Notes: generated by a model not told the origin, from the letters alone. DNA of 30,116 nt from Verrucomicrobiota bacterium (GCA_037139415.1 JBAXGN010000091.1:1-30116); one strand, 5' to 3'. Counted from the stretch's first letter, positions 11,647-16,892 are shown. Numbers and translations: made by a program.

Positions 11647-14193
11647 TCAATGCATTCCTGAATCGCGCGCTACCACGGTGTCGTAAAGACCGTAATGTGT
11701 GAGCCCTTCATGGCTCTCGATGCCCGTGTAGCACAGCGAGGAATCCTCATAGCGCCGGAAGGCGAAGACGGCTTGATTCATCTGCTCGGTATTAAACACC
11801 TTGAGATCCACGAGCAGGTGGAAATCCTTTACCGTCAGACCGGTCACGGTCAGAAACAAGTCCGTTTCAATCTTGGTAATGACGTCCTGGAGCGTGTTCT
11901 CCCGGAAGTCGGTCAGATACATGAACGCCGGAATGCGCGTGGCGAACTTGATGAGCTTCTCCTGCACCAGCTTCCGCTTGGACTTGTATTCCTTTTCCTC
12001 ATCGGTGAGTTGCTTCTTCTCCTTTGCCGACAAGTCCTTCTCCTTCGCCTTGTTTTTGAGGGCTTTGACCTTCTCGCTCTTGTTGATGATGGTCTCGATA
12101 ATGTTGTTGCCCAGAGCACGCCAGCCTTCGATGCGCTCCACGGCGGCCATCGCCTCGGGGTTGTCGAGGACACGGCGCAGAGTGTCGTTATCCACGTTCA
12201 CCAGCATGGCTGATTCCCACTTGCGCGCCAGCAGCGTGGCCGAGGTTCCGGCCATCGCGATATCGAGAATGCCGCCCGCATCAATCTGTGTCATGTTCGC
12301 GCCGTCGTAGGCCAGCACCGGCAGGAACGATACCAGATCCTTCACGGCGTTCTCCGGATTCGGCTCGCCGGGCGAAAGACCGATCCCGTATTCCGAGAGC
12401 TGCCGCAACGCGCGCGTGGGCGCAAAGTCGAATACGAAACAGACCGGCTTGAGGATTTCCTCCGCGTTCGGGGCGTCGCCGTTGGGGTTCTTGATGGACC
12501 ACGGCGATTGCACGCGAAACGCCGACTGAAAATACGTCTCCGGCGATTTGAGGTTCCGCAGCATCAAGATGGATGACCACTGCGGCACGGTGATGCCGGT
12601 GGTGAGCTTGCCGCAGGAGAGCGTGATGGTCTTGGTGTCGAAGCCGCTGCCGATGGCCTGACGCACGGGCGGCAGCGCGTCCAACCCGATGCCTGCCGAA
12701 GAGCCAGCCGCGACGATCGCATCGTAATCACGCCAGAAAACGTTTTGCTTCTCGCCGAGCAGGTTCGCCATCGCGTGACAGGCCGCGACATTGGGCAGGA
12801 ACCAGAACGAATGCTGGAGATACGGCAGCAGGCGCACGTCCGAATACGGGAACGGCGGCCGCGTGCCGGTCTTGAGATACTCCACCGCCTTGGACGCATA
12901 CCCGCCGCGAATGATGTTCAACCACTTTTGCACATCGCTCTTGTGTTTGAACTGCGCCTTCTTCCCTTCACCCGAGGCCTCGAAGAAGGCGTTGAGGTCG
13001 AACTCATTAAACTCCCCGCCGCTTGCGATGGCCACCAGCTCTTCTGGCATCTGATACGTGAGCAGCCGCATCTGCGGCAGCGCGCCGTAGGGGTTCCACT
13101 TGCCAGGGGTCTTCGCCGCGAACTCTTCCTTGGCGCGTTGCTCATCGGTGTAGGTCCAGTTGAAAATCTGTTCCTCGATGAATTCGCCCGTGGCCAGCGC
13201 CTTGAACGGCGTGCCGGAGAGGTAGAGGTAGGCCTTGGTGGTGATGGGCAGGAACTCCGTCTCGTTCTCCGAGAGTTCGCTCAGGTCCTCGTTCACGTCT
13301 GCCAAGTCGGCGGCGTATTTGAGTTCTTTCTTGGCCACCGCCTCTTCTTCGCCCTCAAATAGTTCCTTGGCCGTGTCGCGCCACGCGCCGAAGTGGTATT
13401 CGTCAAACACGACCAAATCCCATTTCACCCTATGAAGCCACGTGTTCTTCGGCTTGATGTTCCCCACCTCGTCGCGCCCCAGCAAATCCTGGAACGAACC
13501 GAAATAGACGAGCGGTTTCTTGGCCGAGATCCGCGTCGGATCGCTCTCGGAATTGCGGGAGAGGTATTGCCAGCCGTCGAAATCCACGTGGGATTCGAGG
13601 TCCGTCTGCCACGCATCTTCCACCGCCGGCTTGAATGTCACTACCAGCACGCGCTTGGCCCCGAGTTTCCGCGCGAGCTGATAACTGGTGAAGGTCTTGC
13701 CAAAGCGCATCTTCGCGTTCCACAGGAAGCGCGGGACGGCGTGCATGTCTTCGTTCCAGATGGAGTGGAAATAAGCGTGGGTCTTCTCCACGGCGGCGCG
13801 CTGCTCGGCGCGCATGGCGAAGGTCTCCGAATGCGTGCCGGTGAACCGCTGCCCGGTGCGCAACTCGGTGAGGACGGTCTTCACGTCCTTGAGCGTGCAG
13901 CGCACCCATTCCAACTCGTTATTCTCAAAGCCTTTCTTGACGAGGGCGGCGCGCACCTCGTGATCGGTGAAGGTTGTGCCGTCGGCGCGCTCGGCGACCT
14001 CATCCAGCTCAATGGTATAGTTCTTGATATTGGCGGTCTTGAGCTGCTCGGCGATGCGCTGCTTAACGTCGCGCGTGGTCTGCCCCACCTTGAGCAGGTC
14101 CTTGTGGGCCTTGTCAGCGATGGAGTAGGCATAGATGCGCGGCCGGGCTTCCGGCTTCAGCGCAAGGATTTCTTCGATGGTGGGCTTACTCAT
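11647..14193 (-). CDS. T5orf172 (GIY-YIG superfamily) nuclease-like domain fused to an SF2 DEAD/DEAH-type helicase (ResIII-like) plus ~300 aa C-terminal region; putative restriction/defence helicase-nuclease
   Basis: Start MSKPTIEEI at 14193, overlapping the Fic stop as ATGAGTAA. N-terminus IYAYSIADKAHKDLLKVGQTTRDVKQRIAEQ is a T5orf172-type GIY-YIG module. Walker A KMRFGKTFTS, motif II VVFDEYH, motif VI-like FQSAFRVQS. C-terminal Lys/Glu-rich coiled-coil segment. Confidence 0.85.
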   Translation of the reverse strand: MSKPTIEEILALKPEARPRIYAYSIADKAHKDLLKVGQTTRDVKQRIAEQLKTANIKNYTIELDEVAERADGTTFTDHEVRAALVKKGFENNELEWVRCTLKDVKTVLTELRTGQRFTGTHSETFAMRAEQRAAVEKTHAYFHSIWNEDMHAVPRFLWNAKMRFGKTFTSYQLARKLGAKRVLVVTFKPAVEDAWQTDLESHVDFDGWQYLSRNSESDPTRISAKKPLVYFGSFQDLLGRDEVGNIKPKNTWLHRVKWDLVVFDEYHFGAWRDTAKELFEGEEEAVAKKELKYAADLADVNEDLSELSENETEFLPITTKAYLYLSGTPFKALATGEFIEEQIFNWTYTDEQRAKEEFAAKTPGKWNPYGALPQMRLLTYQMPEELVAIASGGEFNEFDLNAFFEASGEGKKAQFKHKSDVQKWLNIIRGGYASKAVEYLKTGTRPPFPYSDVRLLPYLQHSFWFLPNVAACHAMANLLGEKQNVFWRDYDAIVAAGSSAGIGLDALPPVRQAIGSGFDTKTITLSCGKLTTGITVPQWSSILMLRNLKSPETYFQSAFRVQSPWSIKNPNGDAPNAEEILKPVCFVFDFAPTRALRQLSEYGIGLSPGEPNPENAVKDLVSFLPVLAYDGANMTQIDAGGILDIAMAGTSATLLARKWESAMLVNVDNDTLRRVLDNPEAMAAVERIEGWRALGNNIIETIINKSEKVKALKNKAKEKDLSAKEKKQLTDEEKEYKSKRKLVQEKLIKFATRIPAFMYLTDFRENTLQDVITKIETDLFLTVTGLTVKDFHLLVDLKVFNTEQMNQAVFAFRRYEDSSLCYTGIESHEGLTHYGLYDTVVARDSGMH
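14101..14193 (-). repeat. junction repeat copy 1 (functional): ATGAGTAA overlap plus the first ~30 codons of the T5orf172-helicase gene
   Basis: The ~95 bp segment cttgtgggccttgtcagcgatgg...ggatttcttcgatggtgggcttactcat recurs at 15295-15399 (~85% identity) and in part at 16851-16892. Confidence 0.85.
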
Positions 14194-15292
14194 TGGGATG
14201 CCTCTTGATGACTTCCCAGTGACCGGCCTTGTCGGAGCCCACGCGCTTGATCCGGCCCTGTTCACGGAGAACCTTGAGGTGTCGCTTGATGGTTTTGTCG
14301 GTTACGCCCAGCGTGAGTGCCATCTTCTGCGCCGTGGCTTTAGGATTGGCCCGCACCAGAATCAGAATTTTGTCCCGGATCTCGTTTACAGGGACATTTA
14401 CAGGGACATTTACAGGGACATCTTCCGTGATGCTTTCCCGGCTCTCCGTCGCCACATCAATGAACTTATACAGCGAATTCCCAATGGCATCGAGCATGAA
14501 GCTGATGAACGGACGACAGTCCACCGCGCCTGCCTGCGAATCCTGCAGCGCCTGGTAGTAAAGCGCTTGGTTGTGGTGGACCAGGGTTTCCACCGGCATC
14601 CAGGCAAACAGCGGATTCCATCGGGAAAGGACCAAGGTCTGCCACAGCCGCCCGATTCTGCCGTTGCCGTCGAGGAAGGGATGGATGTTTTCCAGCATGT
14701 AGTGGACGGCAGAACTCTTGATGAGCGGGTGCGCTTCGCTGGCCTTCCCCCAGTGCAGGAGCTGCTCGACGAGGGCGGGCACCTGTTTCGCCGGGGCACC
14801 GCGATGCATCACCGCGCCATCGCCGCGCACGACGGCCACGCCGACCGTCCGGAACTGGCCCGACTCCCCGATGAGTGCATCGGTCAGGTGCGCGTGGGCT
14901 TTCAGCAAGTCGCTCACCGACCAGGGCTCATAGTCAGTCATTTCGTTGTAGGCATGCCACGCGTTCTGCACCTCCTTGATGTCCTTGGGCGGCCCCCAGA
15001 CCGGCTTGCCGTTGATGACATCGGTGACCTGGCCCAAGGTGAGCTGGTTGCCTTCGATGGCGGTGGAGGCATGGATCGAGAGAATGCGATTGAGTTTGCG
15101 CAGGTGCAACACATCGCCGGACTGTTCCTCCCTGATTTTGACGCGCTCGAGCAGGGCGTGAATCTCGCCGATCTTTTCATGCCATCCTGGGGCTTCCGTG
15201 TAGAACTGTTCCAGCGGCTTCACGGTCTTGTCTCCTTTGGTTTGCCACCAGGTCCGGACAAGCGCTGTTTCACCTCGTGCGTAGTCTGCCAC
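14186..15292 (-). CDS. Fic/Doc family protein (class II Fic, N-terminal inhibitory motif) with C-terminal winged-HTH domain; start uncertain
   Basis: Fic active-site motif HPFLDGNGRIGR. Upstream STAIEG matches the (S/T)xxxE(G/N) autoinhibition motif. C-terminal RANPKATAQKMALTLGVTDKTIKRHLKVLREQGRIKRVG is a wHTH. Contains an in-frame VPVN x3 tandem repeat. Confidence 0.8.
   Translation of the reverse strand: MADYARGETALVRTWWQTKGDKTVKPLEQFYTEAPGWHEKIGEIHALLERVKIREEQSGDVLHLRKLNRILSIHASTAIEGNQLTLGQVTDVINGKPVWGPPKDIKEVQNAWHAYNEMTDYEPWSVSDLLKAHAHLTDALIGESGQFRTVGVAVVRGDGAVMHRGAPAKQVPALVEQLLHWGKASEAHPLIKSSAVHYMLENIHPFLDGNGRIGRLWQTLVLSRWNPLFAWMPVETLVHHNQALYYQALQDSQAGAVDCRPFISFMLDAIGNSLYKFIDVATESRESITEDVPVNVPVNVPVNEIRDKILILVRANPKATAQKMALTLGVTDKTIKRHLKVLREQGRIKRVGSDKAGHWEVIKRHPNE
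14385..14420 (-). repeat. perfect 12 bp x 3 tandem repeat (TTTACAGGGACA) inside the Fic coding sequence, encoding VPVN-VPVN-VPVN in the linker before the wHTH
   Basis: Direct reading of the sequence; in frame. Confidence 0.9.
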
Positions 15293-15399
15293 ACCTTGTG
15301 CAACCCCTTGTGCGCCTTGTCAGCGATGGCGTAGGCGTAGATGCGCAACCGGGTTTCCGGCTTCGGCGCAAGGATTTCTTCGATGGTGGGTTTACTCAT
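15220..15399 (-). pseudogene. duplicated N-terminal fragment of the T5orf172-helicase gene (59-codon ORF MSKPTIEEILAPKPETRLRIYAYAIADKAHKGLHKVWQTT...), junction repeat copy 2
   Basis: Begins with the same ATGAGTAA overlap on the DUF1016 stop. Its first 40 codons are near-identical to the helicase N-terminus, after which it diverges and stops. It overlaps the annotated Fic start region. Confidence 0.7.
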
Positions 15400-16836: not shown

Positions 16837-16850
16837 GGGTGTCTCCGTGT

Positions 16851-16892
16851 CTATGGCTTCGGCGCCAGAATTTCTTCGATGGGTTTACTCAT
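16851..16892 (-). pseudogene. junction repeat copy 3: 13-codon relic of the T5orf172-helicase N-terminus (MSKPIEEILAPKP*) overlapping the MTase stop as ATGAGTAA
   Basis: Sequence atgagtaaacccatcgaagaaattctggcgccgaagccatag directly follows the MTase stop at 16885. Confidence 0.7.

Follow-up and report, generated by a model that had tools for sequence, protein, structure and literature searches.

The window analysed here, a stretch of 30,116 nucleotides (nt) from a Verrucomicrobiota bacterium (GCA_037139415.1, JBAXGN010000091.1:1-30116), contains a putative restriction-modification (RM) operon in which genes of candidate-defence families sit between a methyltransferase (MTase) gene and a helicase gene, and in which pieces of the helicase gene's own 5' end recur at the boundaries of the inserted genes. 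The gene run reads from 20241 to 11647 with every open reading frame (ORF) on the minus strand, and domains were called with Pfam, NCBIfam and PADLOC. It opens with a small MTase-like gene of 224 aa, the first gene of the core operon (19567..20241; 'N237'), with weak N6_Mtase/MmeI_Mtase and PADLOC MTase_II matches, followed by a RhuM gene split by a mobile element and by an Eco57I-type N6-adenine MTase of 528 aa (16885..18471; Pfam Eco57I 4.6e-34, PADLOC MTase_II). It closes with the restriction subunit of 848 aa (11647..14193), in which a T5orf172 (GIY-YIG-like) domain is joined to a superfamily 2 (SF2) helicase (Pfam T5orf172, ResIII), and which we call the helicase. The 2.7 kb between MTase and helicase hold the start of a second RhuM, a DUF1016/YhcG PD-(D/E)xK nuclease cassette of 401 aa (15392..16597; Pfam, PADLOC PDC-S02 3.7e-134) and a Fic cassette of 345 aa with a helix-turn-helix (HTH) domain (14186..15223; Pfam Fic and HTH, PADLOC SoFic 7.7e-45), whose HPFLDGNGR motif is intact and whose start position was set from homologs.

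RhuM is thus present twice, each time in a chimera. Between the small MTase-like gene and the MTase the gene is split by a REP-RAYT-REP element, and a 368-codon ORF (18464..19570) joins its 143 N-terminal codons (19570-19142; Pfam RhuM, PADLOC PDC-S05) to a read-through of the element, out of frame with the transposase; this ORF stops 8 nt into the MTase start (ATGAATGA), and no off-frame open run as long as this occurs elsewhere among the operon genes. Upstream of DUF1016, a solo REP-like element of ~100 nt (16727-16625) cuts off the second RhuM copy, and repeat and ORF analysis delimits an 80-codon chimera (16594..16836) of the first ~34 RhuM codons and the solo REP.

The recurring segment, which we call J, is the ATGAGTAA stop/start overlap together with the 5' end of the helicase gene (its first 13-48 codons). 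Copy A, the working helicase start, runs from 14193 to 14049. Copy B (15399 to 15255) is homologous to helicase codons 1-48 and, according to the repeat finder, identical to A at 124/145 positions (86%) without a gap; it opens a 59-codon leader ORF (15220..15399), within which 15254-15224 is the 5' spacer of Fic with an AAGGAG Shine-Dalgarno sequence. Copy C is a 13-codon leader ORF from the helicase start (16851..16892; MSKPIEEILAPKP-TAG), 84% identical over 38 nt (16845-16882, repeat finder) and in register after a one-codon deletion; blastn, which recovers all three copies, gives it 83% over 41 nt (E=9e-5). An earlier sequence-only reading of the window had described these three copies, but a fourth, diverged one escaped it, fused to DUF1016 as the first ~15 codons of that ORF, in frame (16597-~16553). 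The DUF1016 ORF opens MTKPKQKIAAKKPEA, and 16554-16581 matches J at 71% over 28 nt (repeat finder). The starts given there for the copies are right, but copy B (15295-15399 in that reading, ~85%) extends further, to 15255. The RhuM fragment and REP before DUF1016, the overlap of leader B with Fic and the split RhuM gene between the small MTase-like gene and the MTase had also been overlooked. It had rightly recognised that the three genes upstream of J copies all end in (D/N)-E-stop within ATGAGTAA, namely SDE-stop in the MTase, NDE-stop in DUF1016 and PNE-stop in Fic (TAA).

The core operon has a wide distribution. Helicase homologs number >8000, the best 120 at 89-93% aa identity, and they span Verrucomicrobiota, Proteobacteria, Nitrospirota, Chloroflexota, Acidobacteriota, Planctomycetota and others, with 82-93% identity across phyla. 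Two sets of loci, cited by L numbers, were compared: 80 genome loci of helicase relatives, with both ends visible in 74, and 80 metagenome loci recovered with the Fic protein. The canonical operon of the genome loci consists of the small MTase-like gene, the MTase and the helicase in that order; the small MTase-like protein has 225 aa, and in most of the 80 loci its gene, 70-90% conserved, is the immediate upstream neighbour of the MTase. MTase and helicase directly adjoin in 62/74 loci (52 of them with an 8-nt overlap), and the three closest helicase relatives (92-93% aa) are cassette-free. The other 12 carry inserts, and inserts seen outside the window include RhuM, RhuM with Fic, DUF1016, two DUF1016 genes, a toxin-antitoxin-like pair and RAYT. 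Among the metagenome loci Fic occurs in this operon in many arrangements, including both DUF1016-Fic-helicase and Fic-DUF1016-helicase. The proposal that Fic and DUF1016 are accessory cassettes, which had been made to depend on variation among relatives, is borne out, as both cassette-free and alternative-cassette states exist. The inserts lie between core genes that are usually adjacent, share the orientation of the host and belong to candidate-defence families (PADLOC PDC-S02 for DUF1016, SoFic/PDC-S04 for Fic, PDC-S05 for RhuM). The host is, on this comparison, a putative three-gene RM-like operon that is widely transferred.

Extra copies of the helicase start are found in nearly every cassette-bearing locus, at the boundaries in L004 (two), L007, L008 (two), L014, L020, L031, L053, L056 and L058 and, within the 80 metagenome loci, also in the majority of those in which Fic is linked to the helicase, so the idea that junction copies mark cassette boundaries extends throughout the family. 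The breakpoints within J tend to be specific for the cassette type and common to different phyla. RhuM cassettes begin with ~41 nt of J, TAG, a spacer with GGAG and ATG, the spacer being common to the window and to L004 and L008; L007 has a variant leader that reaches into the start of RhuM. This common module structure assigns relic C to the RhuM cassette, truncated in the window, and not to DUF1016, with which it had been paired and which has a J of its own. DUF1016 cassettes are in-frame fusions at about codon 14-15 (~J42-45), with the exception of L056, which has a 148-nt leader. In related loci they form a graded series back to a near-unchanged helicase start fused in frame (L078, MNKSIEEILAPKPD followed directly by VLFGRV; further members are L093, L125, L130 and L060), and such L078-like intermediates support an origin of the DUF1016 N-terminus from J. 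Two classes of Fic cassette exist, one with a short J (~34-54) and one with a long J (~105-165), and the Fic spacer of the window is homologous to those of L139, L142 and L113. Relic lengths across events are 41, ~50, 59, 77, 87 and 145-165 nt, and no recognisable J arm is shorter than ~34 nt, a length that would fit the minimum homology for RecA-type recombination. Recent, near-identical in-situ duplicates also occur, in L058 (77/77 nt around a small REP-like insert) and in L014 (~95% around an 860-nt insert). The shared breakpoints and spacers indicate that the modules were probably not made one by one in the genome of the window.

From the small MTase-like gene to the helicase each stop in the window overlaps or shortly precedes the next start, as in a translationally coupled operon, the offsets being -4, -8, -8, +14, -4, -8, -4 and -8. 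The small gene and the RhuM chimera share ATGA at 19570, the chimera and the MTase ATGAATGA, and the MTase and leader C ATGAGTAA; leader C is separated by 14 nt with GGAG from the ATG of the second RhuM; the TGA of the RhuM-REP chimera overlaps the DUF1016 start (ATGA), DUF1016 and leader B again share ATGAGTAA, leader B and Fic GTGA, and Fic and the helicase ATGAGTAA. The 59-codon ORF had been called a dead end, but its TGA overlaps the GTG of Fic at 15223, and leaders stay open across diverged loci. For J leaders of 17, 18, 19, 58 and 59 codons upstream of Fic, the stop lies without exception in the (A/G)TGA at the Fic start, and it is kept there even where the leader peptide is barely recognisable (e.g. 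MPKSIEKLLTSRRTRNKP); the remaining Fic leaders end 11 nt beyond the start, end 16 nt short of it or continue in frame into Fic. By a simple chaining test an unbroken relay of ORFs leads from the MTase stop to the helicase start in 30/37 cassette-bearing intervals. In L035 the DUF1016 cassette has been cut down to 65 nt, yet a 28-codon ORF still links MTase to helicase. Internal promoters and terminators in the operon did not exceed the shuffled expectation. We read the J copies as used and not dead, with selection apparently keeping translation continuous and cassette and helicase coupled to the MTase.

Identity at the MTase 3' end and identity in the helicase are uncoupled in many pairs of loci, which shows recombination near the junction to be common. 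A mosaic is given by L066, which has no cassette, and L085, which has leader, Fic and helicase: for 1228 nt, from the MTase to about J125, the two align collinearly at 93%, and beyond that point their helicases are only 82% identical. The L085 leader is like the L066 helicase at its 5' end and like the L102 leader at its 3' end, as expected for a crossover inside J. Variants peculiar to one locus also occur both in its leader and in its helicase start (L097, 33/35 and 33/35; likewise L102, L108 and the window), and copy B of the window matches its own copy A at 124/145 positions and any of 82 other helicase starts at 118/145 at most. This likeness fits gene conversion and in-situ duplication equally well. 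An import of relic B from a distant donor was considered and is not supported, relic B being closest to its own helicase start.

Related arrangements are found away from the MTase/helicase junction, and close homologs of the Fic cassette occur outside the operon altogether, inserted in unrelated genes. In L095 (1440-2790) a Fic cassette lies within the 5' end of a small membrane-protein gene, with a target duplication of ~150 nt and J pieces at both ends, and a leader ORF composed of target codons and a J remnant stops in the GTGA of Fic; in L110 (5930-7135) a homolog of the Fic cassette lies between 55-nt duplicates of a promoter region. At the junction between the small gene and the MTase, L066 is the only locus with an MTase 5' end copy upstream of a cassette (4258-4512; 85 codons, 89% aa, ~3.8 kb upstream of the full MTase), other inserts at this position being without one.

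Taken together, these data make it probable in our view that J has two roles, that of a portable leader for translational coupling and that of a homology arm through which cassettes are exchanged. J would be the translation-initiation region of the restriction helicase gene, and RhuM, DUF1016 and Fic would sit between MTase and helicase as cassettes that each start with a J copy, in RhuM and Fic a short leader ORF stopping at or in the cassette start and in DUF1016 an in-frame N-terminal extension; every cassette would end in the ATGAGTAA overlap with the next J. The leaders would keep ribosomes moving via termination-reinitiation, and expression of cassette and helicase would thereby be coupled to translation of the MTase with no untranslated gap. 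Because J lies to the left of every cassette and the conserved helicase to the right, ordinary homologous recombination could bring cassettes in, remove them, change their order and carry them from one locus to another, and the J copies within one locus may be homogenised by gene conversion. The first duplication at each new breakpoint would be an illegitimate event, for which one-sided homology-facilitated insertion, a template switch and integration of a J-carrying circle are candidates, all of them compatible with the data. A stronger version, which we put forward tentatively and with somewhat more doubt than belief, makes J a recombinase-free cassette platform in which coupling leader and homology arm together serve RecA-dependent capture, reordering and transfer between genomes. 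If this version is true, the RM operon is an integron-like collector of immunity genes, and Fic-like cassettes keep J pieces as a 'passport' in unrelated genes, as in L095.

Several observations weigh against J as a coupling leader and homology arm. The ORF chain is broken in 7/37 intervals, for example in L014, with a probably reverse-strand insert. The 59-codon frame of the window would stay open after 21 random substitutions with P ~0.5 and is, taken alone, not informative; for short leaders, an end near the Fic start is almost automatic, so that support for selection comes from the retention of ATG and frame in diverged leaders and from ~8 long-leader lineages, and these and the other cassette loci are not phylogenetically independent. 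The likeness of leaders to their own helicase start would follow as well from repeated in-situ duplication as from gene conversion. Among the loci compared, no pair with near-identical flanks differs only by a cassette, the nearest being L066 and L085 (93-96%). Finally, in the plasmid Type I loci L163 and L164, which have an embedded DUF1016, four junctions are without duplication, the sequence upstream of the cassette having no similarity to the start of the next gene (z at most 0.6), and the mechanism is therefore not general for embedded genes; in two further plasmid matches checked for Type I embedding the genes are not embedded.

Among the alternatives, a one-sided import by homology-facilitated illegitimate recombination is the most probable, and we regard it as possible, if on balance unlikely. 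A donor segment of cassette plus helicase would pair with the resident helicase, and an illegitimate left join would fall in the resident 5' end, so that the relic is the recipient's old start and the working helicase start is the donor's. The L066/L085 mosaic, with MTase and leader collinear at 93% to J~125 and a downstream helicase at 82%, is what such an event would leave; the helicase, 82-93% identical across phyla, would be a good anchor, and relic lengths vary between events. The donor in such an import must, however, already have the cassette next to the helicase, and the import cannot explain the first capture. The L085 junction is moreover common to L102, which indicates a crossover inside J and not a fresh illegitimate joining; leader and helicase start of one locus have variants in common that are peculiar to that locus, and MTase 3' fragments upstream of the helicase, though expected from canonical donors, are not found.

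The sequence-only reading had itself proposed that Fic and DUF1016 were inserted at the junction one after the other in this genome, each event duplicating it, and that the copies are decaying fossils recording the order of events, the innermost the most degraded. The closeness of relic B to copy A (124/145) relative to the 82 other helicase starts agrees with this, and L058 (77/77 nt) and L014 (~95%) show that in-situ duplication happens. We nevertheless consider this history improbable. The breakpoint and spacer that relic C forms with the RhuM 5' end recur in L004 and L008, which belong to other phyla, the spacer of the long Fic leader is common to L139, L142 and L113, and the same modules are found pre-assembled in unrelated taxa. 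Relic C flanks a RhuM remnant and not DUF1016, DUF1016 has its own fused J, and the leaders keep open frames that end at the next start. Relic length is largely set by the type of cassette, and leaders appear homogenised with their own helicase start; since both cassette orders exist, and the DUF1016-Fic order also occurs with a different leader class (L093, L103, L104), the degradation of the relics is no record of insertion order.

A dedicated site-specific or transposition system, integron-like or of the RAYT/IS200 kind, that recognises the ATGAGTAA region and makes long target duplications is very improbable. Such a system could draw on the presence of RAYT/REP elements in the operons of the window, L004 and L036, on the target duplications around Fic in unrelated genes (150 nt in L095, 55 nt in L110) and on the ends of the L095 Fic, which resemble a J circle opened near J13. 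No large ORF of the window has an integrase domain, however, and its sole recombinase-like gene is the IS200/RAYT transposase, to which most cassette-bearing loci have no match. Breakpoints range from J34 to J165, and a conserved recombination motif, proposed in the sequence-only reading as a thing to look for around ATGAGTAA, did not emerge: conservation at synonymous sites is little higher within J (0.55-0.64) than across the remainder of the gene (0.54), synonymous identity in helicase codons 1-60 being 0.48-0.64 vs 0.54 overall, which indicates no strong constraint at the nucleotide level. Variable breakpoints, barely raised synonymous conservation and a RAYT in few loci together make a dedicated recombinase unlikely. 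To our knowledge, IS200/IS605 elements make no target duplications. An assembly artefact through misjoined or duplicated reads, conceivable in that the window is a complete 30,116-bp contig of a metagenome-assembled genome, has a negligible chance of being right, as has mere coincidence, because the copies differ by at least 14% (14-30%) and lie in different contexts and because the same architecture recurs in dozens of independent assemblies with contigs of up to 3.9 Mb.

In the mobile element of the window, the IS200/RAYT-like transposase gene (19070-18621; NCBIfam IS200, 9e-17, and REP_Tyr_transpos) lies between REP-like repeats of ~100 nt in inverted orientation (19066-19164 and 18528-18630; element 18528..19164) with the palindrome CCCAGGGCRWYGCCCTGGG; a Y1 transposase between palindromic repeats, with the solo REP upstream of DUF1016 as a third copy, has the structure of a REP/RAYT element (REPtron) or an IS200/IS605 element. 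It is an insertion into the array and not the source of the J repeats. In L004 (Verrucomicrobia) and L036 (Kuenenia) the corresponding operon, too, contains this transposase (83-86% aa).

Other features were seen in individual genes of the operon and around it. The DUF1016 ORF contains, at 16165-16320 (minus strand), four tandem units of ~34 nt, each GAAT-stem-loop-stem-GAATC, whose stem sequences differ with the pairing kept in each and which encode the peptide repeat xxPxGxES. This region, which is inserted with respect to the Pfam DUF1016_N model, folds far better than its shuffles (-71.6 kcal/mol, z = -5.0), and one hairpin of this type is kept in the 65-nt cassette remnant of L035. The MTase, compared with its counterparts in L012, L024, L034, L050, L067 and L076, is ~80% conserved in its N-terminal region (to residue ~170 in L024) and only 38-53% conserved in its C-terminal part, which suggests that the target-recognition part may have been swapped between conserved flanks. 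A sequence search of the PDB with the helicase and the MTase gave no match, and an Rfam search found nothing within the operon. Upstream of the operon, a cyclic di-AMP riboswitch (Rfam RF00379, 69 bits; 22876-23040, minus strand) precedes an SPFH/Band-7 gene (21363-22742), and at ~3 kb lie an AbiEii-like AAA_21 ATPase ORF and a DUF4143/AAA_14 ATPase (23134-25286), on account of which the neighbourhood may be a small defence island.

In its parts list the host operon appears related to a split Type IIG/ISP-like enzyme. The DnmA-YeeB-YeeC system consists of an MmeI-like MTase, an SF2 helicase and a T5orf172 nuclease (PMC9973331), and the operon resembles this system and Type III/Type ISP enzymes in having an Eco57I/MmeI-type N6-adenine MTase along with an SF2 helicase and a T5orf172/GIY-YIG nuclease domain; it differs in that nuclease and helicase form one polypeptide and that an additional MTase-like protein of 225 aa is encoded before the MTase. 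The helicase and MTase of the window match, respectively, the helicase part and the C-terminal part of the PADLOC Type IIG fusion model, the MTase in addition to MTase_II. The helicase departs from a Type III Res subunit, in which a PD-(D/E)xK nuclease lies at the C-terminus: ResIII is present, but the nuclease is an N-terminal T5orf172/GIY-YIG-like domain, and no PD-(D/E)xK was detected in it.

The gene array as a whole resembles other translationally coupled operons in its ATGA and ATGAGTAA overlaps and in its short upstream ORFs that end at the next start, but the coupling ORFs are here recycled helicase fragments or REP chimeras, and they bridge inserted genes. With elements that regenerate their target, such as phage 21 and e14 in icd and the islands in tRNA genes, it has in common a duplicated gene end, an intact gene and a displaced partial copy. 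Insertion of such elements depends on a site-specific integrase with a fixed core, and it is mostly the 3' end that they duplicate. In the present operon the duplicated end is the 5' one, each insert consists of one gene, the displaced copy serves anew as a leader, and a fixed crossover core is lacking, J copies ending anywhere from ~34 to ~165 nt. Integron arrays are likewise built of promoterless single-gene cassettes in one orientation, bounded by repeats, whose order and content vary between hosts. The operon differs from them in having no IntI integrase, no attC and no conserved palindrome seen at the cassette ends; its repeat is the variable-length 5' end of a coding gene of the host, expression appears to depend on translational coupling and not on a Pc promoter, and exchange presumably relies on general homologous recombination.

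The closest parallel is found in multi-gene defence operons that have other defence genes embedded in them (Payne et al. 2024, bioRxiv 10.1101/2024.01.29.577857), PrrC within EcoprrI being an example, and DUF1016, RhuM and Fic have been described between Type I hsd genes (PMC9881135). Embedding is a recently recognised and widely used principle of discovery; its significance 'remains to be explored' according to the embedding paper, which describes no mechanism for it (bioRxiv 10.1101/2024.01.29.577857), and in the literature on defence-gene embedding we found no description of a duplicated junction at embedded genes. What the present locus and its relatives add is a concrete architecture that can be tested, in which embedded genes inherit the start region of the downstream restriction gene; translation would thereby stay unbroken from methylase to nuclease, and homology for exchange would be provided. 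If it is correct, it explains how an operon of overlapping genes tolerates insertions without uncoupling restriction from modification, why embedded genes share the host orientation and why the same cassettes occur in many phyla, and a partial copy of the downstream start becomes a signature by which embedded cassettes and their boundaries can be found. The junction copies thus offer a testable mechanism for the expression and exchange of embedded defence genes. As in the known cases, accessory genes of flagged families lie between core genes in the same orientation and their presence varies among relatives; the host, however, is an uncharacterised MTase with a T5orf172-helicase and not Hma, BREX, DISARM or Type I, and here almost every boundary carries a copy of the start of the downstream gene.

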